NCBI GenBank assembly: GCA_900128565.1
Contig: LT635911.1
Coordinates: 1 to 64,000, forward strand
Length of the DNA stretch: 64,000 nt
Direction of reading: 5' to 3'
Source of the DNA: Stramenopiles sp. TOSAG23-6
Taxonomy: Eukaryota
The notes under the pieces are model-generated. The model was not told where the DNA came from and did no database searches. It worked only from the letters and a program-made list of their open reading frames with translations. Shown piece by piece: positions 1,875 through 26,282 of the stretch. The translations under genes and the position numbers were made by a program. Positions within the stretch are counted from its first letter, which is position 1, and each line of letters opens with the position of its first letter.

Positions 1875-2238
1875 TGGAAATAACGATAGAAACTTGAGCA
1901 GCTCCTTGAACAAATTACTAAACAAATACACAGAATTTGATATATAGTGGACGTATTGAAACACAGACCAGTTTTGAAACTTTTTTGAAGCGACCTGCGA
2001 GTCAAAAGAGTCAACGTCATCATGATTCATCAACGAAAAGTCAAGTCAAAAAGCCGGCCAACAACGGCCAACCCAAAAACGGCCAATTTCAACGCGAACG
2101 ATCTCACTCGTCCACGGGTAGTAAAAGTCCTGTATTCTATTCGTGCCGCATTTTACAACTCTATAATATTATCATTGTTTCCCTAATATTCTCTGTGGGA
2201 GGATATTAGTACTACGTTAACCTGTGCATATAATCACT

Positions 2239-2766
2239 ATGAGCGATGTATATTATAGAAGAACTCACCGAAATAAAGGTCATCTTTTCCCCGATGTTTC
2301 AGGGACAAATATTCCACCTTCAGTTGCTCAATATATGTGTCTAGCACCTCCAATAGGATTGTGGAATATTGAATACACTGAAAGCGACACCCCGCTTGAG
2401 CGTGTTTTATTTGACAGAGGAGAATATATAATCAATAGTAGTGAAAGTGAGGACGAACTTATTCCTCAAATAGTAATGTCAGATGAGTGGAAGAAACGCT
2501 TTCAGCGCACAGAGGCTACAAGAAGACGAAGAGCAAACGAGCGTAGAAAGGGACAACGCAAAGGAAATCCAAGGAAGCCAGCGTGGAAGCGTGATGACTC
2601 AAAAACGTATGATCCGCGTGATTTGTTACTTGATGCTATCAAAAGATATGGTAGTGAACCTATCGCTCGTAAGATTCTTTCAATGGAAGCGTCACTTCAA
2701 TCAAATTTTGATCGTATGCGTAATGAAACAGGAGCGATGCCCTGGCCCTCAATGCCTCTAACATGA
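2239..2766 (+). CDS. GEMIN8: Gemin8-like protein (SMN complex component)
   Basis: C-terminus YGSEPIARKILSMEASLQSNFDRMRNETGAMPWPSMPL and central MSDEWKKRFQRTEATRRRR match the Gemin8 pattern (YG..A.KI.AME..LQ..FD......WP.IPL) as recalled. Confidence 0.6.
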   Translation: MSDVYYRRTHRNKGHLFPDVSGTNIPPSVAQYMCLAPPIGLWNIEYTESDTPLERVLFDRGEYIINSSESEDELIPQIVMSDEWKKRFQRTEATRRRRANERRKGQRKGNPRKPAWKRDDSKTYDPRDLLLDAIKRYGSEPIARKILSMEASLQSNFDRMRNETGAMPWPSMPLT

Positions 2767-2848
2767 AATTTGATATTGCTTTTATTATAATACCCAAACA
2801 ATTTGATATTTCCTTTATTATAATACCCAAATTAAATATATATAATAG

Positions 2849-4222
2849 TTAAACTGTAATATTTCCAAGTACAAACCTTTTAAGTTTTGCGTCATCACCG
2901 CCAGTTGCCAAAGTATTCGACTGTCGCCAGTCAACACACAGAATTTTACCATCATGAACATCACGAATAATATGAGAAGCACTAGCACGCGATATTTTCC
3001 CTTCTTCCTCTGATTTATTTTTGGGTGTCTTTTTGCCAATGGCACGCATGTCCCATAGGCACATGCTTTTGTCATAAGAAACAGAAGCTAGAAATCTATC
3101 TACCTCCTGGCTTTCTGATTTATCGGCCGGTTGAAAGGATAGCGAAGAGACCCACCCATTATGCCCACCTCGTCTTAATGTGGCACGTGAAATAATATTT
3201 TCTGTCTCTGCCACGTCACGAGTATCCCACAGGCGGATAGCATGATCAGGATGGGCTGAAGCTATAAGCCCGTTTTGACTTACTGCTAATGCAGTGACTA
3301 CTTTACTACAATGAATTACACGAGTGCAACATAATTGATCTATATTCCATATTCTCAGGGAGTGATCCCATGAACCACTCACTAAAGCACTTTTACAATC
3401 TTTGTTTGAAATTCCTTTGTTACCTTCAACCCATGCAATAGCTCCCACACACTGAGTATGGCCAGAGAGCAATGCAAAAGGGGCTAATTCAGAAGTAGTT
3501 GAAGCCTTACGAGCATCTCCTGTCTTTTGTCGTTTCGTTGATGGTCCATCTGAATCTTCAACATCACTTTGAGTTGGCGTATTCCACAGACAAATTGTCC
3601 CGTCATAACATCCACTAGCAAACTTGTTTGATTCTTTTGACATTGCAATAGATTCTACACTATCAGTATGTCCACAGCATACAGCTACTACTGAGAGAGA
3701 ATCTGAAGCAAACTGCCAAAGCACTACTGTTCTGTCCTTCGACGCACTTACAATATAGATTTCTCCATCCGAACCACGATGTGTTGCAATAGCCTTGATC
3801 GGTTGTGTATGATTGGTAGCAGTTGCTAGTGTTTGACCTTTGGTATCAAAAACACGAATAGTACCGTCATAACAGCCAGTTACTAAATGTGTACCAAGCT
3901 GACCGTCGACACAACTTACCCAATCTGGATGTTCTTCAGCTCCATTTTGTTTTGGAGCTTCCGAACGAATAAAGTATTCAAGTGTAAGAATTGACTCAGT
4001 AGATTTACCCACACTCATAAGATGTTCAGCAATTGTACTCTGCAATAGTAGCTCGTCCTCTATGCATAGAATTTGGAATTCCAGCTTTGACATACCGAGT
4101 AAATGGTTTAGGATTTCCGATAAACCTTCCCTAGTTAAAGTAGTAGGTACATCAATCGGGGTGGACGGGACACGCATGTCCTGCATTTTTGTAACAAACT
4201 TCACACGGACAGTCTCCATCAT
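2849..4222 (-). CDS. WDR12: Ribosome biogenesis protein WDR12/Ytm1
   Basis: N-terminal NLE/ubiquitin-like domain (VRVKFVT...LSEILNHLL...STESILTLEY), HPDWVS and WD40 repeats. Confidence 0.92.
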   Translation of the reverse strand: MMETVRVKFVTKMQDMRVPSTPIDVPTTLTREGLSEILNHLLGMSKLEFQILCIEDELLLQSTIAEHLMSVGKSTESILTLEYFIRSEAPKQNGAEEHPDWVSCVDGQLGTHLVTGCYDGTIRVFDTKGQTLATATNHTQPIKAIATHRGSDGEIYIVSASKDRTVVLWQFASDSLSVVAVCCGHTDSVESIAMSKESNKFASGCYDGTICLWNTPTQSDVEDSDGPSTKRQKTGDARKASTTSELAPFALLSGHTQCVGAIAWVEGNKGISNKDCKSALVSGSWDHSLRIWNIDQLCCTRVIHCSKVVTALAVSQNGLIASAHPDHAIRLWDTRDVAETENIISRATLRRGGHNGWVSSLSFQPADKSESQEVDRFLASVSYDKSMCLWDMRAIGKKTPKNKSEEEGKISRASASHIIRDVHDGKILCVDWRQSNTLATGGDDAKLKRFVLGNITV

Positions 4223-4451
4223 TTTATGTACTCTATGCTGATAATTTGCAAAACTAATCTCGTTTTGTTTGCAGAACTATTCTTCACACTTGGCACTACT
4301 GGCACTGACTCTTAGACATGATACCCGGTACCTCAATTGATTTTTTCGATTTTTTCTGACCATCGACCACTCGTATACTCGTCGACCTTTGACACTCTTG
4401 TCTTGAGATTCATTCTCTCGACTCTGTTATTTGATCCACAAACAATATACA

Positions 4452-5019
4452 ATGAAGCTAATCATCGGCATTTTTGCTCTTATGGTCGCGTCTTGTTCGG
4501 CTTCTAACGCTGAAGGTCAAGCGTTCCTTGAAGAAAATGGGAAAAAGGAGGATGTAGTAGTGCTACCATCGGGACTGCAGTATAAAATCTTAAAGTCAGG
4601 ACCGTCACCAGGAAAATCACCAACAGCAGATTCTCCTTGCTCTTGCCACTACAAGGGCACCTTGATTGACGGCACCAAGTTTGACTCCTCATACGACCGT
4701 GGACGCCCAACTACGTTTGCCCCAAACCAAGTCGTAAAAGGCTGGACGGAAGCTATGCAGGTAAGTTTCTTTGTCCTGTCGCTTTGAACTCTACCAATAT
4801 TATGAGTACCTTTATATATTCTAACACATCACTTATTCTTTCGTATATTTATTTTAACAGCTCATGAAAGAAGGCGATACTTGGGAACTCTACTTGCCTT
4901 CCGAGTTGGCTTATGGAGATCGCGGAGCCGGAGCCACCATAAAAGCTGGAGACGTTCTTGTGTTTACTCTTGAAATGATAGAAGTCAAGGGTGGTTCTAA
5001 GATGCTTACAGACAAGTGA
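4452..5019 (+). CDS. Secreted MIP-like FKBP peptidyl-prolyl isomerase; exons 4452-4760 and 4861-5019
   Basis: Signal peptide MKLIIGIFALMVASCSA; LPSGLQY, HYKGTLIDGTKFDSS, VVKGWTEAMQ|LMKEGDTWELYLPSELAYG join in frame across the intron. Confidence 0.93.
4761..4860 (+). other. Canonical GT-AG intron, 100 nt
   Basis: CAG|GTAAGT donor, CTAAC at 4821-4825, TTTTAACAG acceptor; removal restores the FKBP frame. Confidence 0.93.
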
Positions 5020-5218
5020 ATGTGACTCATGTTTCATGTAGTTCAGTGTATATTCGAAGATTGTTTTAGAAAATTCTGATTTGTTACTACATGTAGAGTT
5101 GATTAAGTCTCCTCTCAACTATATAATTGTTGAAAAATTTAACGAAACATATATTGTTGAGAAAGTTAAGGTAGATGTTACTCAAGTAAATTCTTTTACA
5201 CCTTCAATTATTTTTTAT

Positions 5219-6145
5219 TTATGAATCAATATCGCATATAAGATTTGAAATTGGATCTTCACTCGCAAAATCTGCTTCGTTTCGTAAGTCTAAATCTTCA
5301 ATATTTAAATTGTCCTCGTCGAAAGATTTTAGGTCTGCTTCCAAAATAGTTTGACTGATAGTGTTAGAATCATCTTCAGATTCTTCCGACAAAAAAACCC
5401 ACGGCGAAGAGTTCCGTATTGATTCTGTAGATTCTGTATCTGCTATTGCATTATTCATTTCGACGTTGCTTAGACTGTAACACAAATCATTCATATTTTT
5501 CTGTCCAGTGCTTGAATCAGTAGAGTTTGTCTCAACGGCAGTTTTGAGTTTGTCATAGCTTTCCTCACAGATAATAGAAACATGATGAAAATAATTTTTC
5601 CAAAAGTTTTGTTCTTCAACGTACGAATTCATCCCAGTTTTGTTTGCCTTCAATGTAACAACTCGTTGGCTACGTACAAGACGAAACCTTACTTGACCAA
5701 GGCGAGAGTCAAACTTCAATAACATTTTTGCTTGTTCGATATGCAAAGAATCCATTGAAAAATTTACTGTGCTGTCAGTAGGCTGAAGGAAAATTTTGTC
5801 GCTTGTTGAAAGTTTTAGAATTTTCTCCTTGCAAACTTTACTTTCTCTGGCAATATTGGATGGCGCAAGGGCTTTACTAGAAGAGGGGGAAATATTTTCC
5901 CAGGATAGTCCTTTGAGAAATATATTTTTAGGTGAACATTCTACCTCTAAATTCTGTGCATTTAATGTCACCTCTGTCTCTAAATTCTGTGCATTTAATG
6001 TCACCTCCGTATCGTTTTCTCTATCAGATGTTTGTGATCCGATATTTTCTTTTCCACAATGCTTCGACTGTTCTAGCAAAAAATCGTTGTGGGCTTCATG
6101 TATTTTTTCTAAAACTGCTGAAGACTGACGTAGTAACCAATCCAT
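5219..6145 (-). CDS. BSD-domain protein
   Basis: DSRLGQVRFRLV...EEQNFWKNYF is a BSD signature; acidic C-terminus; 27-bp internal tandem repeat near 5946-6006. Confidence 0.75.
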   Translation of the reverse strand: MDWLLRQSSAVLEKIHEAHNDFLLEQSKHCGKENIGSQTSDRENDTEVTLNAQNLETEVTLNAQNLEVECSPKNIFLKGLSWENISPSSSKALAPSNIARESKVCKEKILKLSTSDKIFLQPTDSTVNFSMDSLHIEQAKMLLKFDSRLGQVRFRLVRSQRVVTLKANKTGMNSYVEEQNFWKNYFHHVSIICEESYDKLKTAVETNSTDSSTGQKNMNDLCYSLSNVEMNNAIADTESTESIRNSSPWVFLSEESEDDSNTISQTILEADLKSFDEDNLNIEDLDLRNEADFASEDPISNLICDIDS

Positions 6146-6551
6146 TTAGTCCAATTTCTAAGAAATAAAACTTGAACTTTTGAAAACTGTATCGTACCAG
6201 TCAGTAGGAGTAGACTACTTTTATTTTACACATAAGTGCAATAATGAGAGATTTGAATCACTTAATTTGTTTGTTGAATAGATTTCAAAATATAATGTTC
6301 ACGTTATCGGAATTTCAATTGAAATGAATTTCAATTGAAATGAAATAGTCAAAAAATGAGCTCGAGAGATGGTTGAAAATATCGGCACCCAAATTAGCTA
6401 GGGTTAGGGGTTAGCTCTTAGATTCAGTCTTGAATCTCATATTTGACCCAGCAGCCAGTAAACTTTACTTATCAGATTCTGTCAAGACATTGACCAACGA
6501 AAGTCACCAACCACCACGAATTTATTCTTAATACAAACGTAAAATATAAGT

Positions 6552-7506
6552 ATGGCGAGCGATTCTACAACACCACAAGCATCTCATAAAAATCGTAGCA
6601 AGCTTGGTAAGAAGGCTAATTCTAAGAATGCAAAGAAAGCCAAGCAAAGTCGAAAGGTAAAAGTTAAGTCTAAGAAGACAACCCCAAGCACATCTGTCCC
6701 AACTGTGTCTCGAGTGAGCAAGGCTAAGCTTCTTGCAGCAAAGATATCAAGACAGGAACTTGCAGTTTTGAATAATCCATGTTTTGTATTGGTATCTAAG
6801 CGAGTACGTGCTGCGAAAAAGAAGCTTCAGCGAATAGTTGACTTGGAAAAGTCAAAGGCACAGGGCAAGGAGCTCGATGCTGCACAATTGCAGTCTCTAA
6901 AAGGAAAAAGTCTTGTTGAAACGAAATTGATTGAAGCGGAGAAATTAAAAGAGAACATGATGCAGGCCGCCAAACAACAGGTATTAGCATCAGAGGCTCA
7001 AATGGAAGATGCGATTTCTAAGTTAATCAAATTGTTTGTACTCGCACAACGTAGACCTGATGACTCGTTGTTACAGACTGCTTTGGAGTCTATATTTCCG
7101 TCTCGGATAGTTTCAATTGAGAACGATGTCATGAAAGCAACTAGTCGTGCATTGATGTTCATTGAAAATTCAGAAGCGACTATTAATCGTCATAAAAAGA
7201 TGGAAGAACATGTGACTTATAAAAGTATTTCTGAACATGTTTCCTCTGTTGCAAAAGAAGTACAAGAAGAGGAAGTGACAGCGGCAGAAGAACTTGTAAA
7301 GAAGGAAAAGGAGTCGAAGGAAAAGGAGACAATTGCGGTGAATAAATATGTTTCCGCTGATGATGTCGAAGCTATCGAAAAGGATTCTCTTCCCATTAGC
7401 AAAGACTATATTCATGTAAATTCCACTGAAGTTAAGGCTCAAATGAATTTAAACTCTAAAACGAAATCTCAACGTCGTCAGGGAAAGCGACAGAATGAGC
7501 AAAAGC

Positions 7507-7550
<44 letters not shown>

Positions 7551-8105
7551 CTTAATTGGCAACAAATGCAACAACAGGAATTTGTAGAAGAAGTAAATGT
7601 TTCTCTTGTAACTGGAGAATTAGAAAATAATTATAATCATGAAACTTGTACTAACATTAATGATACGCAAGAAATTAATGCATCTACTGGTTGGAATGAC
7701 GTTGTGACATTAGGTGGATGGGATGCTGCTCTACAATCAGAATGTGACGTGAATCAGAATATATCTATTCCACCAAAGCCACATTCTAAAACCAAACTCA
7801 ATGGAAAACAAAATGGAAAACAAAATGGAAAACAAAATTTTAAACAAAATTTTAAACAAAATGGAAAACAAAATGGAAAACAAAAACAAACAGGAAAACA
7901 TTCTGCAAAACAACAGCCGCGGAATGCTTCTCAAAACGTATCCAAACAACGTGGTGCATCTCGACGCGGAAATAGATCTTATGGGCGTGGAAAAGGTAAA
8001 GGTGATAATCGGCAAGGTGGAGAAAATGGTCAGTTGAATCACAAATTTCAAAAGAAAAACACCAATAAGCGAACTTCATCACCTAAGAAGTCAACTAATG
8101 TATAG
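6552..8105 (+). CDS. Caprin-like RNA-granule protein (coiled coil, polyQ, RG-rich tail)
   Basis: KRVRAAKKKLQRIVDLEK...GKELDAAQLQSL resembles the Caprin HR1 N-terminal helix pair; polyQ; NGKQ repeats; RG-rich end. Confidence 0.5.
7506..7550 (+). repeat. (CAA)n microsatellite encoding polyQ
   Basis: Direct inspection; 12-bp AAATGGAAAACA-type repeats also lie at about 7800-7885. Confidence 0.9.
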
Positions 8106-8622
8106 ATTATATGACCTTTACTTCATTGATCGCAGAAACTGATGCTATGCGAGGAAGTGTTAATGAATATGCGTTTATTTGATAAATTAGTACTGCTATT
8201 ATGTTTTACTATCTTGGAATTTATTTATATGTTAAAATTAAAAAATCCCAAATTATTATACTGTATTCATTATGAATGTCTTTTCGATTATACACTTTCA
8301 AAACATATTTTTTAAAATTTATCGGCTCATAAAACCCCGTAGTAGAACATTGTATGTTATTAATGTTAATGCTAAAGAATACAAGAGGAGGAACTGAAAG
8401 TCAGCTACAGTATAGGACTATTGTAGCAAATTCGGAATTTTTTAATAGTAGCAAAATTTGACGTCATCAAATTCAAAATGAGGTTTTCTTTCTGCATTGT
8501 CGTGACTCCAAGACTCATGGTCAGTCACTCACACATAAATTATTATTTTCATTCATCACCATGGGCAAGATTAAGCTTGCAAGTTAGCACACTTAAGCCA
8601 ATTGTATTTTGTTACGAGGAAT

Positions 8623-11600
8623 ATGCCGTGTCAGACTACTTTGAATCATCAAAAAGGTGAAGAAATTATATTCCCGTTTCCTTTCCCACCCTATGATATC
8701 CAGAAATCGCTGATGTCTAGTATATTTAAAAGACTTCAAACCGGTGGTGTTGGTATCTTTGAGAGTCCGACGGGTACAGGGAAGAGTTTAAGTATAATCA
8801 ATAGCGCACTACTTTGGCTTAAATGTTACGCACCTCCAAACTATGACGTTCTTGCGGGAAATAGGAAATTTGAGCAAAATGGAAAAGCTATTGCAAAAGT
8901 TCCAGCTGTAGCTTCGTCTTTCAATTCGTCTGACGATGAAGAACCAGATTGGGCTACTCAATATGAGTCCGCAGCAGTGAGATCTCTGCGAGAGCGTCAT
9001 GAATTTGCAGAAAAACGATGGCAGGCTCGAATCTTGGCACTACTTCAAAATGCAGAAGGCTCCGACAACTTAAACCGTAAACGTGGCCGTTGGTCTAGAG
9101 GCCACCACAAGGGTTCACGAGCAAGCACAAAATCTAAATTATCTAAAAAAGTACTTTCTGACAACAAACAAGAGAATTCAACGATATGCGATGATGAAAA
9201 TGACGATGAATTTCTTGTGGATGCATATGATAGCGATGATGGCGTTAAAGAGGCATGGTGTACCAGCAGTAGTAGTAGTGATGCGGATGGTTTTAATTCT
9301 GATGATGACGACACACCTCTTAGTGTTCGGAAAGTAATTTACTGTACTCGAACACATTCTCAGCTCTCACAGTTCATGAGTGAAGTTAGAGAAACGACAT
9401 TTGGAAATCCCGTTGGTAAATCTCGTACAAAAGAAACATCATCGATGATAGAACATTCCGGTACCAAAAGGAAACTCTCTTCTACTGATAGTTCTATTGA
9501 GCCATTATATGTGAGATGTATGTTTTATTTTTTTTAATTTATATTTGTTTTTCGTACGAAATTTTGTACCTAACGAATTTTATTTGAAATTTTTTTTGAA
9601 ATATTTTTCCAAAATATATGTATTGCATTAGGATCTAGAAAGAATCTTTGTATAAACGAAAGTGTTAAAAAACGGGGAGGGACAAGCATAAACGAATCGT
9701 GTCTCGAAATGCAAAGAAATGCAAAATCCATTAGTAAAACATCTGATAAGAATATAAAGAAGGGAAGTTGTCCTCATTTTGATAAAGGTCCACAAAAATT
9801 GTTTGGAGACCATGCGACTGTCAAAGTTCGTGATATTGAAGATTTAGCAGCACTTGGTAAGAATATGGGATCTTGTCCATATTACGGAGCTCGAAAAGCT
9901 GTACCTTTAGCAGAATTGGTCACAGTTCCTTATAATATGATTCTTCATAGTGGAACACGAAATCGATTACAGTTGCCATTGAAGGGAAATATTGTAATAT
10001 TTGACGAAGCACATAATATTATTGATGCAATTAATAATGCTTACAGTTGTTATGTAACTCATGAAATTCTAATTGCAGCTCATAGAGAACTTTCACAGTA
10101 TCTTCAACGATATAAAAGTCGACTGAAAGGTCGAAATATTATTTTTATCAATCAATTATTATACGTTTTACGGTCCATTGCCAAATTCATTGACAAGTCT
10201 AAAATATCTCCAATTTCAAATGTGAATGGGAAAAGTGTCAATGAAACATCCAATAATAATGTGTTTTCTCTTAGTGAGTTTGTAACAAAAGCTGGTATTG
10301 ATCATATAAATATGTTCAAACTTGATAAATATATTGAACGTAGTAAAATAGGACGTAAAGTTCAAGGTTTTACAGAAAAGTATGTGAAACCTTTTGAAGT
10401 AGAGTCTGATGATAACCATAACCCTAATATCCAAACGCAAAAGAAATCTTCAGGCTCAGCACTAATGCAGGTCAGGGAATTTCTCATGGCACTTACAACA
10501 GCAAATGGTGACGCAAGAGTTCTTATTACAATTGGAAGTGTAAAGATTGTAATGCTCAATGCCTCAGTACATTTCAGAGAAATTGTAAATGAAGCCCATG
10601 TACGTTTTTCAAATTGAATTTTGAGTTTTTTTTTTCATACGAAATTTTGTACCTAACAAGTTTTTGAAAAAAAAAATTGAAATATTTTTATACAATATAT
10701 GCGGTGCTTCTTTTGGGCGGTACCATGCAGCCAATTCAAGATATCGTGAATCAATTATTTTGGCATGTAGAATCTGATAAAATTACTACACTTTCTTGTA
10801 ATCATGTTGTTCCTGATTCAAATATAATAGCTCTAACTGTTGATAAAGGACCTATGGGGAAATCTCTTAAGTTTACTTATAAAATACGAGAGCAAGTAGA
10901 GACACAAATTGAACTTGGCCGTCTGATTGCGAACTTATGTATATGTATGTTTTATTTTTTTTCAAATTCTAAATTTTTTTTCGTACGAAATTTTGTACCT
11001 AACAAATTTTAGGTTTTTTTTTTGAAATATTTTTCCAAAATTCATTAGTTCCTGGTGGAGTTGTCGTATTTTTACCATCTTTTCAATATTCAAAAACACT
11101 TCAAACAACATGGAACAAATCTGGTGGTATATTAAATAGAATTGCAAAAAAAAAGAAAATATTTTGGGAACCACGTAATGCTATTGATGTGGAATCCACA
11201 TTATTGGATTATTCATTCGCTATAAAGAAATATAATATTTCAGAAAAGTGTAATCAAAATATATCGCCCTTGGGCACTCAAAATCAGAATACTCAACAAG
11301 AAAAACAAAATAAAAATCTTACTGGTGCAATATTATTCAGTATTGTTGGTGCTAAAATGTCTGAAGGAATTGATTTTAAGGATGACTTGGCAAGATGTGT
11401 AATTATGGTAGGTTTACCTTTTCCGCCTCCTAATAGTCCTGAACTGAGAGAAAGGATGATCTGGTTAGATGAACAATCTAATAAAAGGACAATGGAGTTA
11501 CAGCCACAAGATTCAAGAATTTGCTCAAAAGATATAAAAAATAANAACAAAAATAGCGCTGGTCAGGATTATTACGAAAATATATGTATGCGGGCAGTGA

Positions 11601-11791
11601 ATCAGTCTATAGGTCGCGCAATTAGACATAAAAATGATTTTGCTTCAATTGTGTTGGTTGATAGTCGATACAAAGAAGAAAGAATAAAACGAAAACTTCC
11701 AGCATGGATACAAAGGCGTACGAAAGTAGCCGATTCATATGGACAAGTAGCAAAATGTTTAGGAAAGTTCTATCGATCACATAAAGTGTGA
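8623..11791 (+). CDS. DDX11: Fe-S DNA helicase DDX11/Chl1; exons 8623-9517, 9620-10599, 10701-10944, 11046-11791
   Basis: [72 protein letters not shown] and [12 protein letters not shown] join in frame using three GT-AT introns. Confidence 0.93.
9518..9619 (+). other. Non-canonical GT-AT intron, 102 nt (DDX11 intron 1)
   Basis: GAGAT|GTATGT...AAAATATAT|GTATTGCA gives [13 protein letters not shown]; the intron has an in-frame stop; the next AG (9630-9631) would create TGA. Confidence 0.85.
10600..10700 (+). other. Non-canonical GT-AT intron, 101 nt (DDX11 intron 2)
   Basis: CAT|GTACGT...CAATATAT|GCG gives [14 protein letters not shown]; the next in-frame AG (10729-10730) would delete helicase motif III. 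Confidence 0.85.
10945..11045 (+). other. Non-canonical GT-AT intron, 101 nt (DDX11 intron 3)
   Basis: ATAT|GTATGT...AAAATTCAT|TAGTT gives NLCI-LVPGG; in-frame AG alternatives exist (ending 11048 or 11012), so the end is assigned by homology to the other family members. Confidence 0.7.
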
Positions 11792-11903
11792 ATGTAAATT
11801 TAATATGAAATAAATATACTGTCGTAATTATTTCGTACCTTTGAAATTATAAAATACTTCCATCATCTATCTTCCACATAAAATGTTCATAGCCATATAA
11901 AAG

Positions 11904-12350
11904 TTAGAATCCTAAATCAGACAACCAGCTCTTCACCCTCTTTGTGTGATTGCCCTTTGCTTCAATTCTACCATTATATATTTTAACTTCACTTTCCAAA
12001 CAAACCTTTTGCATCTCCGTAGCGAGGGCATGGACATCTCCTTCATACTTGCGCAATATTGTTACAGTCTTTGAACGACCATTTTTATAGTCGATATACA
12101 CTGGCAATTGCTTACCAATATCTGAACGGAAAATGTTAAACGGAACATTGCCTGCTTCTTTCATATCACGTGTGTAAACTAAAGGTCTAGGATTTTCTGA
12201 CCACGCCACTTGGTGTTCACGGCGTTGCTTTTTTACCCAGAATGGAATCATACGCTTATTAATAATACGATTTGAATGACTACCACTTCCCCCATGCTTG
12301 GTTGCGATTGAGCGGGTGAACATGACTATGGTGTGCTTTGTAGCGCTCAT
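11904..12350 (-). CDS. MRPL49: Mitochondrial ribosomal protein mL49 (Img2)
   Basis: FNIFRS...QLPVYIDYKNG...TILRKYEGD...IEAKGNH...VKSWLSDLGF; alternative ATG at 12362. Confidence 0.88.
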   Translation of the reverse strand: MSATKHTIVMFTRSIATKHGGSGSHSNRIINKRMIPFWVKKQRREHQVAWSENPRPLVYTRDMKEAGNVPFNIFRSDIGKQLPVYIDYKNGRSKTVTILRKYEGDVHALATEMQKVCLESEVKIYNGRIEAKGNHTKRVKSWLSDLGF

Positions 12351-12452
12351 GTTGAAGTACATCTTGTAGAAAAACTAATAATATTTCTACAGTAGTGTTT
12401 TAGTATAGGTTGGTACTGGTAAGTTCAGTAGACTTTGGCACGTGTTGCGTTG

Positions 12453-12466
12453 CTTTTTGACACGTG
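12453..12466. promoter_or_regulatory. CTTTTTGACACGTG motif (contains G/E-box CACGTG) in the divergent mL49/CDT2 promoter
   Basis: Exact 14-bp copy at 46693-46706; a second CACGTG lies at 12439-12444. Confidence 0.45.
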
Positions 12467-12655
12467 GCATCGGCATGCATGATTTTTTTGATTTTTTTGA
12501 ATGACATCAGCAAATAACTCACGACGGACTCACGACCAAAAAAACTGAAAGAATTAATAATATTTTTAGAGTTTACTAAACTTGTTTCAACAAGAAGATT
12601 CTGGAAAAAGACTACAATCCCTATAATCACTACAGTGTAATATCAGACGCGGAAG

Positions 12656-15034
12656 ATGTCGAGCGATCCATGTTCTAGTACTGTATCAAATCTAGTCTGG
12701 CGTGAAAAAAAAAATTCAGTGAACATTGTGCCAATGGTCAAAACTTGGAATGCTAGAGCTACTAACAGACGTTTACGCCCAAGCTTGTCACGCTATGTGA
12801 TGAATCGTCAAATGGGTTGTGGCGGAGGACAACAATACTCACAGTCTACAACTGTACAGTGGATGAAACGTCGGCTTATCGTTGGATGTAAAGCTTCATC
12901 CCTTGCAAATTCACGAATAAACGTTCTCATGTGTCGAAATGAGTTGGAGGAAGATGTACCACCGTTTTGTTCCTTTTTCTCCAGATATGCGCTTGGTGGA
13001 CATGCACTATGTATATCAGACGAAGATGGATGGGTAGAAATCTTAGACTCGCGATTGCCATTGGACATCATTGAAAATGCTGAAAGAAAACGTCACCGTT
13101 GGCTTGCTCACGCTAACGCAGTATTCGATTTAAAGTGGACGGACTACGACACCAAAATTATTACAGCTTCAGGTGATCAAACGGCACGTTTATTTGATAT
13201 AGAAACACGGAAATTATTGTTAACATTTGAATCTCATAATGGAAGTGTTAAATCTATTTCAACGCATCCATTAAACCCTCATGTGTACGCTACTGGTGCA
13301 CGTGATGGCCATTTGATGCTTTGGGATTCTCGTATATCAATGAAAATAGCTGGTTCAAACAAGAGAAGAGATCGTGGTCGTAGTATTGGCGATACGACGG
13401 CAAATACAAATGACTGGATTGTCAATCCTTTCATAAAAGAATACAATGCACATACTCTTCAAATGTTCAAACGAAAAAGAAGTCAAGGTTCTATTCCTGT
13501 CGACTCTTGTGCTGCTGTTACAACTGTTAACCTCATGAAGGATGGATTTTCATTAATAACTGGTGGTGCTGCATCAGGTTGTATGAAAGCATGGGATTTG
13601 CGACGTTTAAAAGGTAGAAAGAATAAACAAATTCAACATGTCGATGAATTTTGTCCTAGGCGAAGTCCGGGTAGACCATATGGAATTAGCTCAATTGATG
13701 TAGATGAAAGTGGAACAACACTCTTGGTAAACTTTACTAATAATATTATCAATCTCTTTCATTTTGGTATGTCTAATCCATGCTTCAAGAGTTATAGTGA
13801 TATAACTGGTAAAGGCAAAGGAAAATGTTGTGATGGGAGGTCAGGTGGGTGTCTTAATCACACTTCTGGTTTCGTAAAACATCCGTATAATTATGTATCA
13901 GACACAAGAATGAGTGACTCTTTCTACGTAAAGGCATGTTTTTCTCCAGATGGTAGACACATACTAGCAGGTTCTTGTGACAGTAAAGCATATATTTGGC
14001 CAGTACTATCATGTGGTAGTTCTTATGACTTTGATGGAATTTCTTCTTTTGCACCTGATGAAGTATCTATACCAAAGGATGTAATATTAGAACGTCGTAG
14101 GCAACAAAAATATTCTTCCGAAGAAATTCATAATGTGAAACCTATACGAATTCTTTCTGATGCTCTTTCAGAAGTAACCTGTGTAGATTGGTGTAAAATT
14201 GACCCTCAAAGAATTGTTACTTGTTCAGATGATTCTATTGTTAGATGTTATCAATTGCCCAATGCATGTGACGAAGAAAAAACATATTTCAGTAATCCCT
14301 ACCTAGTATATAAGACAATATTACCTGAATCTCAAAAAAATATACAAAATAATAACAATTCACAGACAAACACTCAAAATAAACCGAAAAAAATCCAATA
14401 CACTCTTGCGAATAAAAGTATCAGATATTCTACTATAAAAAATAATATGATATCAGAGTCTATGGAAACCTCAGCTGGTAGATCTGTCAAAGATAAAATA
14501 AAATATAGTGAAAATATTGAAAAAAATAAATCATTTTTATGGCCAAATAAAGAAGTAAATTTAAAACAAAAAAAAGAAGCTCGTTTAATAGCAATAATGA
14601 GAGCAAAAATAAAAGCTGAAAAAATAAAAGAAAACAAAAGAATTAAAGACGAGGAAAATAAATTACATAATGGGAATGGAGAAACTGATAAAACGGATAT
14701 TCTATCCAAGATTTCACCTCTTAGTCGATATTTTCGAATCAAACCAAGAACAATTAGCAAATTAACAGATACAGATGTTGTATCTGACAATAAAGAAAAT
14801 GTATCACAGCATGATGATTCTTGCACAAAAAAGCAAAGTAAGACAAGTTTTAATAATTCTGATAGTAATTACCAAGCATGTATTATAAAGAAGGTATTAG
14901 ATGACTCTAGAGAGAAAAACCAAATAAATACAAAAGAATCTGAAAAAGATCTATCGTGTAGTAGTAGTCCAGAGAAAAAACGACAGCGAACTATTTTAGA
15001 CTTATGGGGGCTTAATAATATACTTAACTTATAA
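12656..15034 (+). CDS. DTL: Denticleless/CDT2 WD40 substrate receptor of CRL4
   Basis: WLAHANAVFDLKW, TASGDQTARL, HNGSVKS, TGARDG, SFYVKACFSPDG, EVTCVDW, TCSDD; C-terminal QRTILDLW is PIP-box-like. Confidence 0.88.
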   Translation: MSSDPCSSTVSNLVWREKKNSVNIVPMVKTWNARATNRRLRPSLSRYVMNRQMGCGGGQQYSQSTTVQWMKRRLIVGCKASSLANSRINVLMCRNELEEDVPPFCSFFSRYALGGHALCISDEDGWVEILDSRLPLDIIENAERKRHRWLAHANAVFDLKWTDYDTKIITASGDQTARLFDIETRKLLLTFESHNGSVKSISTHPLNPHVYATGARDGHLMLWDSRISMKIAGSNKRRDRGRSIGDTTANTNDWIVNPFIKEYNAHTLQMFKRKRSQGSIPVDSCAAVTTVNLMKDGFSLITGGAASGCMKAWDLRRLKGRKNKQIQHVDEFCPRRSPGRPYGISSIDVDESGTTLLVNFTNNIINLFHFGMSNPCFKSYSDITGKGKGKCCDGRSGGCLNHTSGFVKHPYNYVSDTRMSDSFYVKACFSPDGRHILAGSCDSKAYIWPVLSCGSSYDFDGISSFAPDEVSIPKDVILERRRQQKYSSEEIHNVKPIRILSDALSEVTCVDWCKIDPQRIVTCSDDSIVRCYQLPNACDEEKTYFSNPYLVYKTILPESQKNIQNNNNSQTNTQNKPKKIQYTLANKSIRYSTIKNNMISESMETSAGRSVKDKIKYSENIEKNKSFLWPNKEVNLKQKKEARLIAIMRAKIKAEKIKENKRIKDEENKLHNGNGETDKTDILSKISPLSRYFRIKPRTISKLTDTDVVSDNKENVSQHDDSCTKKQSKTSFNNSDSNYQACIIKKVLDDSREKNQINTKESEKDLSCSSSPEKKRQRTILDLWGLNNILNL

Positions 15035-15076
15035 TTTATTATTAAAGAATGTTTTTATCATCACATTAAATGTCTT

Positions 15077-18000
15077 CTATGTTTCCCAAATTTTAGCGTT
15101 GTTCCATTCTGCGGAGTTTTCTCCGTAAACGCTTCGGAATTCCTCTTCGGTGTATGCGGTGCCATCACTAGGATCAATCCGCTTTTCAACATAGTATAAT
15201 GGCTGATTATCATCTGATTGGTATGCGTCATTATCAAAGTGATCTCCATCGGTATTATAACCACCTTCATCAGTTTCGTATCCAAATTCGTCATTAAGAG
15301 CCTCCAACGAAGTCATATCATCAAGTATGCTATTTTGTGGATAATCTTGGTCTTGCTCTGCGTAGTTGATTTGATTAATTCCTGTGTCATCTTTCTTCTC
15401 GTCCGCATCCACCCCGGCTTCGTTGATGTTTTCGTCATCGTCACTATTATCACTATCACTTTCTTTGTTTTTGTCACTATCGTCAAAACCTCCTTCCGGT
15501 ATCGGCGGTGGTGGGGGTCTTTCCTTTACTTTTTTCTTGAGAATATTCTTGAAACTAGAAACCTTTTTCTTTTCAATAACTTTTACGACGCCACCTTCGT
15601 CGTTTTTCTCGTTATCATCATCGCTATCATCATCGCTATCTTCATCGTCGCTACTACTACTTTTGCTGATTTGCTTGGTGTCCTTTACCTTTCTTTTTTT
15701 TCTACGTAAAAGACGTTTAAACTTCTTTGCCAAAGGAACGTCCGAATCTGAATCAGTGTCAGAAGAAAGTACAGCTGCCCGTTTCTTCTTAGGCTTTTCA
15801 AAAGGAACAATTCGAATATCGCCTTCTGGCATTTTCCAGCTAGTCTCACCAGATGCTCCGCAGAAATAGTATGTTCTTCCAGTTTTTTTGTCGTGCAACG
15901 AATTCCAAAGCATAATACTGTTGGTGTCCTTAATTTTCTTGACAAAGCCTCCCACAGTAGCGCGGACGTCTTCCTTTCCACGAATTGCTCTTCCTAAAAA
16001 TGAAACTGCGTTTGCTAGGTCTTGTGCTTGCAATGATGTTGCTGCACTGACAAGGTTCGAAGAAATCCTTGCGGCTTTTGTATCCATTGCGTTTTTATAT
16101 GCATCTGTATCCTTTGCGACACCCCACAATTTTGAAAGAGCTTCCGCTGTTTCACTTTCACGAATTTTCGTCATTGTACTTTCAGAACCAGGTGGGCCCT
16201 TCAACACCCCACCAATATCGATCCCTTTCTCTCTTACACCATCCGCGAGTCTTGCCGCGAACAATGCTACTTTCGAATGTTTTGGCAACTTATAGCATTT
16301 GACTCCTTTTACTCTAGTGCAATTTCCCTGACTATCTAACTTCACATTCTTCGAAGGAACAGTTGCAAAATTTCCGAATCCGTCCCATTTTTCTACCAGC
16401 ATTATTTGTAATACGGTCTCTATGCTCTCCTTCTGTTGTTGCTCTAAACGAATTTTATCAATTAGCCTTTGTGCTGGCGATTTCAATGAATCCATTAAAA
16501 TTGCTGCGTCAGTTTTTTTATTGACAATCGCGTTACGTCTCTTCTTCTTCTTCGATTTTCTCCTCGCACGTTTAACTGTGAACTTGCGCCCAACAATGAG
16601 TATACGGTCGTTTTCTTTCAAAAGATCAGTGATATCAACTGTCGTGTGAAGCGTTCTCTTATCTCTTACCAAAGTAACGGTTCCCGGCAGTTCCTCACTG
16701 AATTTATCTTCCATTATAATAGAAGCAGCTGATCGACCAATATTTTTGAAACGAGTTGACGTCAACTTTTGCCGATCTTGTTCTTGTCTAACCTTAATAC
16801 TTTCAGCTCGCTCCCAAAGTCGCTGCTGTCTCATACGCTCACGCCCTGCGCGACGGATCATCTTTCCACGATACAATGCTTGAAATTTTGTAGCGGACTG
16901 ATGCATCGCCATTAATTGGAACTGAGCTCGCAGTGCATCTCGTTCTGCTAGCTGTTCTGCTTCTATACGAGCTCTTTCTTCTTGAATTTTCTTATTCCAA
17001 ATATCAACTAGAAGCAAAGGTTCAGGTTTCGCATTGTGAAGCATCCTTTGGCCATGAGAGTGAACTTTTTCAAAGCAAATTGTGCAATATGGTTCATCGC
17101 ACTCAATACACCACCACTTAACTGCGTAGTCCTCACACTCTACACATGTTGCAACAATTGGTGTCCATGAGTGAGACTTTTTCATGTGTATATTTTCAAA
17201 GCAATTGTCACAAAGTTTAGCTTTCTTTGGAGTTTTCCTATGAGCAAGCTTACACGCTAAACAGTGGCGAGTTGCCACTTGATAACCACATTCCCCACAG
17301 ATGTCAACAGGGAGTTTTGTGTGCTTCTTCCGTTTACCTGAACAGTGTGTGTCGTCATAACATGCACTACAAAATTGTGTCTCACATTCCCGACAGACAA
17401 CTTCAACACGTTCTTCTTCACATTGCGAACATAGAACAACAAATTCACGCTCAGGAGTCGGAAGTGTAAAAATATTGTCAAGATCTTCCGCTTCAACCCA
17501 ATAAGCTTGATCATTCGCATCATAATCCCAATAACCATCTCGTAGGCAAGCAGGTCGATGCCAAGACTTTTCATTTGTTCTTTTGTTGAAATAATACGGT
17601 TCTTTAGTTTCAGGGTCCATAAATTTTACAAATATATCATTGATAACAGCCCATCTACGAGCTTTAGCCTGGTATCTCCTGACCATTAATTGAATACGAA
17701 TAACCCAACCACCCTTTCGCTTTGCTTCCAACCATGCTTCCTTTGCTATTCTAGAAAGTGCCATGAGCTCCTTTCCCTTATACCTTCGCCAGGATGCAGC
17801 GCACACCCTTTGAGCCCATGTTAAATCATCTGTTACTTTCGACTCAAGTTTCTTTCTTGCGCTCTTGTTAAAAACTACCCCGTTGGAATATAATAAATGA
17901 TTATGGATAACTAGTATTAATCTAATTTCACCTGGTGTCAATGGATTGAAAATTCCTCCCAAGCGACCAGGTGTTCTCGTGTTCGGAATCAATTTTCCAA

Positions 18001-21000
18001 TTCTATGTTGTGCTCTTAGTTCGTTAAAATTTGTCGCTGCTGGATACTTAAGATTTGCTATATCTAAGAGAGCGTCGAGAAACTGTGAAAAGTTTAGGAC
18101 ACGCTCGTTCTTTTTTTTGTATTTAGCAAAGATAATATCGCACTTAGTAGCAGTTATTTTTGATTTATCCAAAAGATTATGTGCTTGTGATATCATCTTT
18201 TTAAAAGAAGAATTGTCTATGGTTAATTGCTTTGAGGCTCCCTGCTCCTTTGCGAAGTTACAAAATATACCGCCAAAGCCCCACACACCCAAAACTTCAG
18301 GGCNTATCCCCTTTTTCTTTTTTATACGTATAGTTCGTAGAGTAAGAACGTATTTCCAGTACTTTCTCGTATGAGCATATTCGGCACGCCCACACCACCC
18401 GACATCCTCAAGCCGACGCATTGAATCTCTCAAGTTTGAAGCCAATATACGTCCGTGATATCCACGGACCATCGATTGAATTTTTGCCACAACACCCTGG
18501 TATCTTCTCATCCTATCTAATAGTGCTCGAAATTTTTTACGTTGCATTGATCCTTTCAAATATCTTTGAAGAACTATCGCCATTTTCTTCTTTCTTGCAG
18601 AGTTCCACTTGAGAAAGCGCCGCTGTATTTTCGAAGCAGCCGGTCCATATCTTTTCATCAGAACTCTCTTTTTCATTAGATGTCCACGTATCCTACTCTG
18701 TACGAGAATGACAGCATTCATTCTTTTCTCTATTTTTGACTTAATTCTTGCTTTTTGCATTAGATGGATTTTACACTTTACTTTTTTTCGACCAAGCTTC
18801 CCACGATAGCATTTTTGAACTAAAATTGCTGCTTTCTCAAGCTTTCGAGCTTTGTTAAATATACCTAGTTTTACTGCCCGTCTTAGCTTGTGCTTGTTTT
18901 TCTTCAGAGCTTGCATATCAACGACAGTTTTAAACCTACCTCCAAAATACGATAGCTCTTGTAAGTCAGCCTCTCCTGCTTGTTTTTTTTTCTGTCTTCG
19001 TTGAGCGGTAATACGAATCTTTGACCAATATAAATCTTCCCGAATTTTTTTGCAAGCCTGCACCTGTAGAATCCGCCGCAAGTGATACTGAACTTTTTTC
19101 TTTGCAAGGAAACGTCTTCTTTCTTTGAATGTTCCAGTGATGTATCGCTGTACTCTCAGCGCCATCTTGAATTTTCTAGCTTTTATTAAATTTCGAAGCT
19201 GCTTATATCGTTCTATACCACGCCACCATTCTTTAATATAATTAGCTGCCCCGTGTTTTCGAAATAAAAGAAGACGTTCTGCCCGTTCCCTCTCACGTTG
19301 AACCTTGGCTCGTCGCATACGCCGCAAAGTCAAAAGAAGCTTAACATGCTTCCTATCTCTAAAAGCTCGAAAAATTCGCTGTGCATGAACTGCAAGACGT
19401 ATTTTTGCTTCCTTCAGTATTTTTAGGAAAAACATCAATGCTTTTGAGTGGTGTATCCGGTAGTGCTGCTGCACTTTCTTACAGCTTTCTACCAACAGTT
19501 TGAATTTTTTTGTACTCTTTCTTGATTCGTAACCACGATAGAGTCTTTGTAAGTGAATCGTTCCTTGAATACGACGGAGAACTCTTTCACGAGAATCTTT
19601 CTGTGCTTCCCGTTCCTGATTCCGAATTCTACCCAACTTGTCCTGGATATCCTTCCAACCCCAATATATCCTATAACGCCTTTGAATAATTGTTGCGTAT
19701 TTTATTCGACTTGCTAAAATTTGTCGCTGTATTTCTTCTCTCCACCTATGCAAACCGAGCTCAAGGTATTTTATGATCATGTTGTTTAAAGATTTCTTAA
19801 TCATGTTAACGAAACGTTTCATTCGGAACCCATAGACTTCATCGTTCATTGCTTTTGCGACTAAATTCCGTGGTAACCTTTGCAACATCGCAGACATCAT
19901 TCTCGTGCTTTGATATTTCATTTCATTTACTTGCAACCGTGATTCTTCGGCACTATGCTTCAAAATATTGTGTCTTTGTTTTGTTGGAGGATCAATTGCC
20001 TGAGGAGTTTGTATTAAATTTGTACTTGTTAAACCAGTAGCTGATTTCAGGCAATGTGCTGACAGACCATGTAACACAAAACCTGGTTTTTTGACAGAGG
20101 TTGAATGCAGAGCTATTGGAGTCTTTTCTATATTTATAACTTTCGGATCTGTTTCTTGTTCTACATTTTCTGTTTCAGAAAACCCCTCATTATTTTCTGA
20201 ATGTAAACAAATGTCTTTATTATTTTCTCTATCAAGTATGTTGTTCTCATGAATTTGTATATCTTTGCTTTTTGAANTTGAAGTCCTCACAACATCTTGA
20301 TGTCTTGATATTTTCGTTTTTGTAGAATCTTTTTGTGAAACTTGTGGTTTTGTAAAATCTTTTTGTGAAACTTGTGGCAATGGTGTTGTTCCAATATAAG
20401 ACGTTGGAAATTTATGTTTCCTAGCGAGTGTTTCATGTTGTTTCTTTCGAAGTTCATGAAATGGATCCAAATGATCACTTTTCGTAAATTGTTTTTCAAT
20501 CTGTTTAATTGCTTGCCTTACGGCAAAGTTGGGCGCAGGAATTTTATCTAGTTCTTTTGCCATATGAGGTGAAATTGCACTGAGTATTGGTAATTTCGGT
20601 GGTGGTGTATATTCTATTGGTTTTTCATCTTTATTTAGGGATGATTTATATCCAGGTATAATACCTCGTTTCTGTAAAATGTATTTTCTGTGTTGCTGTG
20701 CTGTTCTTTGTAAATGATATAATTTAACCTGAAAGTTTGTATCATTTTGCATTCGTTTGTATCGTATATTTTGCTCTAACGCCTTCGCTTCATCCTCAAG
20801 TTCTTTCGGTCGAGATAAAAACTCTTCAATTGTTAGTTGTGATTTCCTATCAGATAAATGCATCGGTTGTAGTGAATATTCCTCACGTCTATCTAATAAC
20901 CCTAATCCTACAGTTGGATTACTTGTGACAGATTTTGATATTTTACGTCTAATTGTACTACTTCGTGGCTTATTTGCCACTGAGCGAACTGAAGATAAGG

Positions 21001-21406: not shown

Positions 21407-21717
21407 ATCTAAATCTTTATTCTGGCATTTTCAGTGATTCCTTGGCCATGTGGCCGAAAACATGGCGTGGTGCTGATCAATCTTTCAATTTGTTTGTATG
21501 GGGGGGTACCAAGCATATTAGTAGTAGTGTCTCTCTCATGTCAGTTACATACAATTGTTGACTACTAGTAGCAGCTGAATTTTAAAGATTTCGTGTAATC
21601 GCGCTGAGAGTCAGTTTAATTTTCACTCGAGGTTGAAGGAAGGAGTGCTACAAAGTACTTAGTTGTATATATCAGAGGCGCCCTCACATATAATATCGAG
21701 GTGCTCTTCCAGGGGCC

Positions 21718-24700: not shown

Positions 24701-25917
24701 ATATGGAAGATGCAATGATTATTGGTAAAGGGTCGTATGATCGTGGCTTTGGACATGCATCTGTGTACAAAGTGAAAACTGTTGACTTGTGCGAACGCGA
24801 AGCCAATCCAAAAGAACGTTTTGGAGTTGAAGTTCCGGTTGAAGGAAATGTAAGTGAATGTAATGGAAATACCACACATGGCAAAGGACAACAACAAGGC
24901 GCAGAGAATATCGATTCGGATGGTCTTCCACGTGTCGGAACAAGACTTGTCAAAGGTGATGCTATGTATTGTACTGTAGATAAGACTACGGGTATAGGTC
25001 ACTACGGAGTATATAAAGATAATGAACCATGTGTTGTGGAAGATGTACAACTTCTTGGTCCTGGTATGGGCAAATCTGAATTTACCAAAATTAGTATGAA
25101 GCTACGATACAATCGTAATCCAGTAGTAGGAGATAAATTTTCAAGTCGTCATGGACAAAAAGGTGTATTATCCTTTCTATATCCGCAACAAGATATGCCA
25201 TTTACTGAAAGTGGAATGTCGCCTGATATTATTATCAATCCACATGCTTTCCCTTCTCGTATGACAATTGGTATGCTTGTTGAAAGCATGGCTGGTAAAG
25301 CTGGAGCTCTTCATGGTCATTTTCAAGATTCAACTCCTTTTCGCTTTGATGAAAATCACCGTGCTGTAGATTACATGGGTGAACAACTAAAAGCTGCAGG
25401 TTACAATTACTATGGTAGTGAACCTATGTACTCTGGAATTACAGGTGAAGAAATGCAAGCAGATATTTTCATTGGTTGTGTTTATTATCAAAGACTTCGA
25501 CATATGGTCAGCGATAAATCTCAGGTAAGATCAACTGGACCAATGAATTCACTCACAATGCAACCTGTAAAAGGCCGTAAACGAGGTGGTGGAATCCGTT
25601 TTGGTGAAATGGAACGCGATTCTCTCATTGCTCATGGAACATCTTTCCTCTTGCAAGATCGTCTTTGCAATAGTTCAGATAGACATAATGCATGGGTATG
25701 TTCTAGTTGTGGGTCAATGCTCGGATTCCAATATCACAGAAAAGGCGGCGCAGCAATTCCTGGAGGTAAAATCATGCACGAAACTGCCCAAAATGCTTTA
25801 CAATGCCGCTCTTGTAATAGTAAAAACATAAAGCAAACATCGATGCCTTATGTTGTACGTTATTTAGCTAATGAACTTGCAGCTATGAATATCAGAATGG
25901 GTGTGGAAGTATCATAA
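21718..25917 (+). CDS. POLR1B: RNA polymerase I second-largest subunit; exons 21718-23313, 23419-23561, 23886-25917
   Basis: [88 protein letters not shown]. Confidence 0.96.
23314..23418 (+). other. Non-canonical GT-AT intron, 105 nt (RPA2 intron 1)
   Basis: TCA|GTACGT...AAAATACAT|GTACAT restores HFRS-VHRG; in-frame TAA inside; nearby AGs (ending 23386, 23428, 23432) are all out of frame. Confidence 0.88.
23562..23885 (+). other. Canonical GT-AG intron, 324 nt, hosting a structured RNA candidate
   Basis: AAG|GTAAGT...AATAG|A keeps the RPA2 frame. Confidence 0.85.
23647..23771 (+). ncRNA. Candidate intronic box C/D snoRNA
   Basis: Terminal stem TAGTGA/TCACTA, box C variant ATGATTA (23654-23660), box D variant ATGA (23762-23765), internal hairpins; GC-richer than the flanking intron. 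Confidence 0.6.
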
Positions 25918-26282
25918 ATTAAATGAGTCAAAGACAAGCTTAATAAGTTGGAAAAATAATGAAAATAATCTATTCGAAAAAGAAAATAATGAATGGGTGT
26001 GGATATTCTTTACTAACTCCGATTTTTTTTACTATATTATGTCTATTTGTCGCGTGTGATGTGCACTATGAATTTGATCACTATAAAAAACTTTAAAAAA
26101 GCGACTTTTAAAATATTTTGTTTTTTATATTTTGTTTTTTATTTTGTTTAAGCGCACGAAATCAAATATCACAAAAAATCAAATAATAAAATTTTTTGGA
26201 ACAGGAGCGCGAAAGTTCAAAAAGTCACAAAACACAACAACTTGAAAATAACAACAACTTCTTCTTCTTTCTTCTAAACAAT

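Follow-up and report, generated by a model that had tools for sequence, protein, structure and literature searches.

What kind of insertion begins like an ordinary intron with GT, ends with AT and interrupts essential genes several times over in nearly the same form? This question is raised by a stretch of 64,000 nucleotides (nt) from Stramenopiles sp. TOSAG23-6 (assembly GCA_900128565.1, contig LT635911.1, positions 1 to 64,000 of the forward strand; referred to here as the window), in which four insertions of 101 to 105 nt share an internal block of about 25 nt. A first, sequence-only reading of this DNA had offered two explanations for the block: a recognition signal for a dedicated small nuclear RNA (snRNA) or protein that positions the acceptor by distance, or the footprint of an introner element that had recently spread. 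Our results favor the introner, given that the copies resemble one another over their full length and lie at unrelated sense positions, and they lend no support to a dedicated factor that measures distance. From the sequences, the block is best read as the conserved core of a repeated, introner-like family of about 100 nt in a compact, intron-poor marine eukaryote, and this family probably consists of spliceosomal introns with a non-canonical AT acceptor (GT-AT introns). Bursts of intron gain are at present best explained by introners, most known cases of which obey the GT-AG rule.

Copies of One Element Interrupt Conserved Genes

Three of the copies lie on the forward strand in a four-exon gene for a CHL1/DDX11-like helicase (8623-11791), whose exons match the Pfam domains DEAD_2 and Helicase_C_2 and whose closest homologues are a EukProt protein (61% identity) followed by oomycete CHL1 proteins (38-39%). 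The first copy occupies positions 9518-9619 (102 nt, GTATGT...ATATAT, phase 1, block at 9550-9574), the second 10600-10700 (101 nt, GTACGT...ATATAT, phase 0, block at 10633-10657) and the third 10945-11045 (101 nt, GTATGT...TTCAT, phase 1, block at 10979-11003). The fourth, at 23314-23418 on the same strand (105 nt, GTACGT...ATACAT, phase 0, block at 23353-23377), interrupts the gene for RPA2, the second-largest subunit of RNA polymerase I (21718-25917, forward strand, start codon approximate), which also contains one GT-AG intron. The RPA2 exons match Pfam Rpb2_1, 2, 3, 6 and 7 together with the Rpa2-specific domain 4. Both interrupted genes are essential and conserved. The proteins encoded in the window are closest to those of stramenopiles (oomycetes), and the genetic code is the standard one.

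The 25-nt pattern of the block, TTTCRTACGAMATTTYGTACCTAAC, has five exact matches in the window, on the forward strand at 9550, 10633, 10979 and 23353 and on the reverse strand at 56329, and it was not matched once in 100 shuffled versions of the window that preserved dinucleotide composition. The match at 56329 is not independent because it is the mirror image of the copy at 23353. The window contains an inverted repeat of 10,565 nt with 100% identity between its arms (15706-26270 and 53436-64000, the second arm reaching the window end), and the reverse-strand element at 56288-56392 in the second arm duplicates the RPA2 element. There are therefore four independent copies in the window, and the shared block that the sequence-only reading had described in four introns of 101-105 nt is borne out.

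A fifth copy came from outside the window. When metagenome contigs of the JGI collection were scanned with the block, a single locus was found (L001), on an independent contig. Its element is 104 nt long (GTATGT...CAATACAT, ending in ACAT) and is sense-oriented within a gene that has no Pfam domain. The unspliced frame of this gene stops three codons into the element, and removal of the 104 nt reopens it until a following GTAAGT intron, as judged by frame only. A scan of viral contigs with the block gave no matches. Among prokaryote genome contigs, a match in a Bacteroidales metagenome-assembled genome covered a 20-mer only, which is at chance level for a collection of that size, and it was discarded. 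Downstream of the exon bearing the JGI copy, the minus strand of that contig carries inverted telomere-like motifs (CCCTAAA and TTAGGGT) and three tandem AT-rich units of about 60 nt, at about 2265-2335 and 1890-2040.

An nhmmer profile built from the five copies and run over the window recovered the known sites and nothing else; neither diverged copies nor antisense or intergenic ones appeared. Three copies are thus in the CHL1/DDX11-like gene, one is in RPA2 and one is in the unnamed gene of the JGI contig, at positions that are unrelated to one another. The sequence-only reading had proposed to compare sense-strand introns with antisense and intergenic positions; for the five copies to which this comparison can be applied, all five are sense and intragenic and none is intergenic.

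Excision from GT to AT Would Keep the Proteins Continuous

Where the ends of these insertions lie can be asked of the reading frames and of the proteins. The unspliced frames run into stop codons within each element, and the CHL1 gene without its three elements translates as one open frame down to its stop codon. Because of sequence identity across the junctions, the borders of the four window copies can slide by -2 to +4, -2 to +1, -2 to 0 and 0 to +4 nt, respectively. The only shift common to all four is 0, and this corresponds to GT...AT.

After excision at these borders, the three CHL1 junctions align without gaps to all nine homologues used in the comparison (the EukProt relative, two oomycete proteins, one unnamed metaclust protein, and proteins from fungi and plants); the junction at the third element reads ANLCI|LVPGGVV. 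For RPA2 we used alignments to Protein Data Bank (PDB) entries. The upstream exon reaches residue 477 of Schizosaccharomyces pombe RPA2 with one further residue, and the downstream exon begins at residue 479. On yeast RPA135 the same junction falls at residue 501, again with one further residue, and then 503, so that there is neither a gap nor a surplus residue.

We also enumerated the alternatives in which a GT or GC donor is joined to an AG acceptor near each element and the frame is kept open. This gave 36 in-frame, stop-free combinations (10, 7, 12 and 7 for the four copies), all of which alter the length of the protein inside conserved motifs. The 10 alternatives for the copy at 9518 remove 5 to 29 residues, and the 7 for the copy at 10600 remove 10 to 23 residues, with the loss of GGTMQ among them. 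At 10945 the 12 alternatives change the protein by -14 to +11 residues, and at 23314 the VHRG motif is destroyed by all 7 alternatives, which change the length by -13 to +25 residues. By these alignments, GT...AT excision alone would restore gapless proteins at the four window copies, except for one mild alternative at 10945 that uses a TAG and is considered below.

The element positions are uninterrupted in the predicted proteins of relatives. The 61%-identical CHL1 relative is contiguous at all three positions, as is an RPA2 fragment of 74% identity at HFRS|VHRG; this contiguity would fit a recent gain of the insertions. A protein search across the RPA2 junction, aimed at fragments from spliced transcripts of the organism itself, returned five matches, none above 74% identity.

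Anatomy of the Element

The sequence-only reading had placed the conservation in the block. The block is indeed conserved, but conservation is not confined to it, since the whole element of about 100 nt (102, 101, 101 and 105 nt in the window) can be aligned. In an alignment of the five copies, similarity extends from GTAYGT at the 5' end to ...AAAATAYAT at the 3' end with a mean column identity of 81%. All five donors consist of GTAYG followed by a run of T, as GTATGTTTT or GTACGTTTT. The core common to the five copies reads TTTC-GTACGA-AATT-TYGTAC-CTAAC and is followed by a T-rich stretch and a terminal YAT, and the acceptor end is AT in all five rather than AG. The general branch consensus is CTRAY, which CTAAC fits. 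In summary, the features of U2-type introns (GTAYGT, CTAAC and T-runs) are present in five of five copies, and only the last base departs from them (YAT instead of YAG).

The palindrome TTTCGTACGAAA that had been noticed within the block is perfect in two of the four window copies, as claimed. The core can be described as an internal tandem duplication of 12 nt, TTTCGTACGAAA followed by TTTYGTACCTAA, and in the JGI copy it forms a perfect palindrome of 16 nt. The block of the copy at 10600-10700 contains the variant CATACGA. The two halves of the core might form a hairpin of 6 bp (GTACGA with TYGTAC, that is, GUACGA with UYGUAC in the RNA) that would end directly at the CTAAC motif; bases can pair in 29 of the 30 cells of this alignment. 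In minimum-energy folds of the four window copies, both intron ends are unpaired in every case. We also observed that the block holds two donor-like strings centered on GTAC, GTACGA and GTACCT, both complementary to the donor of the element itself (GUAYG). A terminal inverted repeat (TIR) suggested by eye, ATGTATGTTTT with AAAATACAT, was dropped because it requires a gap and takes in exon bases.

The JGI copy is the most divergent of the five. It has kept the donor end, the block and the last 8 nt, and the stretch between CTAAC and the 3' end has drifted. Functional splicing signals would be expected to show such a pattern of conservation. Three of the five copies have no AG at all from the branch motif to the 3' end, and each of the other two has a single AG located 3-10 nt from the branch A.

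Each insertion is bordered by a short direct repeat, of 6, 3, 2, 4 and 5 nt in the five copies, with the length and the side of the repeat varying from copy to copy. For random pairs of window positions 100-104 nt apart the expected mean repeat is 0.77 nt, and the probability of the observed sum of 20 is about 3e-4. In four of the five copies the upstream exon ends in AT, as does the intron.

Spacing and the Ordinary Introns of the Window

A fixed spacing between the block and the AT end had been proposed, with the presumptive branch A at 46, 44, 43 and 42 nt from the 3' end. We measured the same values in the window. What did not hold up is that this spacing is especially fixed: over the five copies, the branch motif is separated from the 3' end by 40-46 nt and from the 5' end by 55-63 nt, and the 3' distance is no tighter.

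As a comparison, we looked at the ordinary introns. An automatic scan of the window for GT-AG introns was too noisy to use, and the count of ordinary introns here is that of the two definable ones. Both lack the block, as the sequence-only reading had stated for GT-AG introns. One is in an FKBP gene (4761-4860, forward strand; 100 nt, GTAAGT...AACAG) and has TCTAAC 36 nt from the AG. Its position is supported by the FKBP_C profile, which is matched from 3 to 53 up to the end of exon 1 and from 55 to 93 from the start of exon 2. The other is the second intron of RPA2 (23562-23885, forward strand; 324 nt, GTAAGT...CAATAG), with the acceptor placed by frame only. Because an element and a GT-AG intron occur in the same gene, the RPA2 transcript must be processed at both kinds of intron.

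Judged from a sample of one intron, that of the FKBP gene, a long distance from branch to acceptor may be normal in this organism. The fixed spacing of the elements would then mostly reflect common descent, with no need for a molecular ruler, because the FKBP intron has a distance of 36 nt and because copies that are nearly identical share their spacing in any case.

The part of the window outside the second repeat arm (1-53435) is compact and intron-poor, with about 23 long open reading frames (ORFs) spaced 100-300 nt apart, and its four element introns are at least as many as its two definable ordinary introns. The second RPA2 intron is AT-rich and contains a G+C-rich island of about 90 nt (23680-23770), which has no Rfam match and folds no better than shuffled sequence (z score of -0.57); it could be a small RNA hosted by the intron. 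The first 140 residues encoded after this intron gave no match in the PDB.

The Element in Environmental DNA and RNA

The sequencing runs that contain the CHL1 stretch are a small data set of 2015, possibly its source, together with seawater metagenomes and metatranscriptomes. We compared one DNA and three RNA sequencing runs with positions 8400-26000 of the window (17.6 kb). In the DNA run, a seawater metagenome, 7096 contig pieces fell on this stretch, almost all of them on the four elements. The mean depth was 2128-13072 in bins that contain an element and 5.6-10.5 in bins without one. At single positions within elements it was 323-497 (23345-23347), 1461 (9542) and 36,130 (10973). Element positions therefore exceed the single-copy depth by factors of about 50 to several thousand, a ratio that comes from a mixed community, at 90% likeness and with T-rich parts included, and that is not a copy number per genome. 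These data show that the family or its close relatives are present in very many copies in that community. One contig of the DNA metagenome runs from the upstream CHL1 exon across position 9518 to 20 nt inside the first element. Because it enters the element from the CHL1 exon, the insertion must exist in natural DNA and did not arise as an artefact when the window was assembled.

In the RNA runs, cover of both genes was thin, with contigs of about 180-380 nt and depths of 2-7. In the polyA run, 1 of 16 placed pieces touches an element. The 15 joints listed of the 146 found in the three RNA runs link one element copy to another; these are alignments induced by the repeats and do not represent excision of an intron. 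At the loose ends of RNA contigs, consensuses at 10619, 10964, 10665 and 11010 show other copies of the element, with an agreement of only 0.69-0.92. In these copies the donor is GTACGT, with AA or AC as the exon bases before it, and the elements end in ...CAATACAT and ...AAAATACAT. These ends hint that AT is a general feature of the 3' border, and the exon bases hint that not every upstream exon ends in AT.

A Probable Spliceosomal Introner with an AT Acceptor and Its Alternatives

How might such an element be removed? In the model that we favor, the element would supply its own signals, namely a GTAYGT donor, a hairpin that ends at CUAAC, a T-rich tract and a terminal YAT. Most likely, an ordinary U2-type spliceosome would use the donor and branch of the element and cut after AT, about 40-46 nt past the branch A. 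The boundary repeat of 2-6 nt suggests a target-site duplication (TSD), the 3' copy of which would now be the intron end, co-opted as AT. Such repeats agree with a published model, outlined in excerpts of PMC11282704, according to which the donor comes with the introner and the TSD is co-opted as the 3' end. On this model, removal would take place at the RNA level, by the spliceosome and with CUAAC as the branch point, and the element would have spread by transposition. Taken further, there may be a lineage of uncultured marine stramenopile-like protists with thousands of introner copies, in which the spliceosome routinely joins GU-AU introns and the 3' cut is set by the hairpin, CUAAC and YAU together. 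We regard this broader picture as a serious possibility that falls a little short of probable.

Several observations weigh against a family of spliceosomal GT-AT introners. The AT acceptor violates the most conserved rule of U2-type splicing. The copies examined as sequence number only five, four independent ones in the window and the one from the JGI contig, and the metagenome depths given above describe a mixed community rather than one genome. No compensatory change supports the hairpin, with no pair altered on both sides among five close sequences, so that a central hairpin is possible at most. The minimum-energy folds of the four window copies, made with coordinates offset by a few bases, have z scores of -1.0 to -3.4 and are not exceptional. 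A search with a seed of 6 found no TIRs in any of the five copies, only the central palindrome around the block. The RPA2 copy lacks AT at its 5' flank and has its repeat (GTAC) on the opposite side. No RNA contig bridges any of the four junctions among the 15 joints listed of 146 in the three RNA runs. There were 1019 and 1121 element-containing RNA pieces in two non-polyA runs from one sample, and this abundant element RNA could be unspliced RNA or carry-over of DNA. Finally, the copy at 10945 has a TAG acceptor 3 nt beyond the AT that costs one residue, and this copy, taken alone, could be spliced as a GT-AG intron through that TAG.

It has to be asked whether specialized machinery, such as a U12-like minor spliceosome or an snRNA or protein specific to the lineage, reads the block and sets the 3' cut by distance. 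Such machinery would account for a dispensable terminal AG, three of the five copies having none after the branch motif, and the sequence GTACCTAAC exceeds the minimal CTRAY branch motif. The block is also the best conserved part of the most divergent copy. The U12-type donor consensus is RTATCCTT, and the donor here is instead GTAYGT followed by T residues. That consensus agrees with the GCATCC/ATCC description in excerpts of PMC1557818, according to which U12-type splicing tolerates ends other than AG and AC, GT-AT included. The same excerpts place the U12 branch site close to the 3' end with no obvious pyrimidine tract, whereas here 40-46 nt separate the motif from the end and a T-rich tract follows it. 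A cut set by distance is also at odds with a branch-to-end spacing that varies by 6 nt over five copies, as much as the donor spacing does, and with the 36-nt distance from branch to AG in the nearby canonical FKBP intron. Rfam at gathering thresholds reports nothing in the window, and so no snRNA there. We consider specialized machinery of this kind unlikely. 

Two further explanations do without any spliceosome. The elements might be excised from DNA or never removed, as insertions of germline-like or defective transposons, or they might be artefacts of amplification or assembly. The boundary repeats are compatible with this, the perfect inverted repeat of 10.5 kb is typical of amplification chimeras, and the RNA runs gave no evidence of splicing. 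What makes this explanation improbable is that an independent DNA metagenome contig enters the same insertion and that a further copy comes from another metagenome. In addition, the flanking exons are intact and in frame, three insertions occur in one gene, and the frame of the essential RPA2 is restored exactly. All five copies carry sense-oriented donor, branch and pyrimidine signals, which would not be expected from DNA elimination or random insertion, and the standard code and stramenopile-like proteins give no pointer to a germline of the ciliate type. Equally doubtful in our view is removal by a structure-dependent RNA pathway outside the spliceosome, as proposed for the nonconventional introns of euglenids or the hairpin introners of Amoebophrya. 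The non-canonical 3' end, the boundary repeats and the central palindrome resemble features of those introns that are described in excerpts of PMC11282704 and PMC7789003. Against such a pathway, the ends of the element are unpaired with each other in four minimum-energy folds, there is no TIR, and a textbook spliceosomal donor and a consensus branch motif are found in five of five copies.

Comparison with Known Introns

The spliceosomal GT-AT introner suggested here shares features with several described systems. The introners of Micromonas pusilla and Aureococcus anophagefferens (for wider families, see Gozashti et al. 2022) are short, nearly identical introns present in large numbers at unrelated positions in a marine picoeukaryote, as the elements here probably are, and in both the donor is supplied by the element and the model derives the 3' end from a TSD, as presented in excerpts of PMC11282704. 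They differ in having canonical motifs, TIRs and TSDs of constant length (excerpts of PMC7789003), whereas the elements here have an AT end, no TIR and a variable repeat. The AG-AC and AG-AT introns of Fritillaria borealis, which derive from transposons, were gained in mass, as the elements here may have been, can likewise end in AT, and appear to be handled by an adapted U2 spliceosome, according to the same excerpts of PMC11282704; by contrast with the elements described here, which have a GTAYGT donor, deviate only in the last base and occur in a protist, they have an AG donor and TIRs and belong to a chordate. The Amoebophrya introners and the nonconventional introns of euglenids resemble our elements in their boundary repeats of a few nucleotides and their marine protist host, and probably in their high copy number. 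As far as these excerpts describe them, their borders vary widely and their ends are paired by inverted repeats, in contrast to the uniform GT...AT and unpaired ends seen here.

In animals, GT-AT introns with the same terminal dinucleotides are known from both splicing systems, U2-type in DGCR2 and U12-type in DEADC1 and SLC24A6 (excerpts of PMC1557818). These excerpts describe GT-AT introns as rare, with one U2-type case (DGCR2) conserved between human and mouse and seven U12-type cases listed, and they cite experiments in which the U12 machinery could splice GT-AT introns productively. The animal introns are isolated and unrelated, seven U12-type and a handful of U2-type in five genomes, whereas here they form a repeated family with AT as the rule. 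Repeated introns of about 100 nt with predicted structure are also found in fungi as introner-like elements; these have canonical GT-AG ends, and we compared them by description only.

As they are portrayed in these excerpts, none of the Micromonas/Aureococcus, Fritillaria and Amoebophrya systems has a canonical donor together with an acceptor that is uniformly AT. TIRs are not carried by all introner families (excerpts of PMC11282704). The portions of full-text literature covered on introners, MAST-4, stramenopiles and GT-AT introns describe no such family, and supplements to these papers may list intron classes. The main text of an introner survey (PMC9860276) contains neither 'stramenopil' nor 'noncanonical', and its supplements may hold relevant tables.

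If our interpretation is true, the elements would be the first family of repeated introns with a non-AG acceptor as the norm beside a canonical donor, occurring alongside GT-AG introns in the same transcripts. It would mean that the spliceosome of a protist can use a non-AG acceptor genome-wide, and would provide a natural experiment on the choice of site in the second step of splicing. Gene finders restricted to GT-AG would break or mis-model every gene that contains such an intron in abundant, uncultured ocean grazers, and this could bias the gene counts and intron statistics published for such genomes.

Other Features of the Contig

The arms of the inverted repeat are 27 kb apart and duplicate RPA2 and part of an ORF of 2117 codons (15077-21430, minus strand). 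The 10,565-nt repeat looks like a chimera of amplification or assembly rather than biology. A sub-threshold Rfam match to SNORA4 (27 bits against 56) that lies across an intron-exon border was taken as chance. Eight single N bases occur in the window, at 11545, 18304, 20277, 38683, 43736, 52723, 59429 and 61402, one of them in the last CHL1 exon, where it gives an X in the translation. An ORF at 6543-8105 has no Pfam match and encodes a run of 17 glutamines, and it contains a 12-nt tandem repeat (7782-7915) that encodes NGKQ units.

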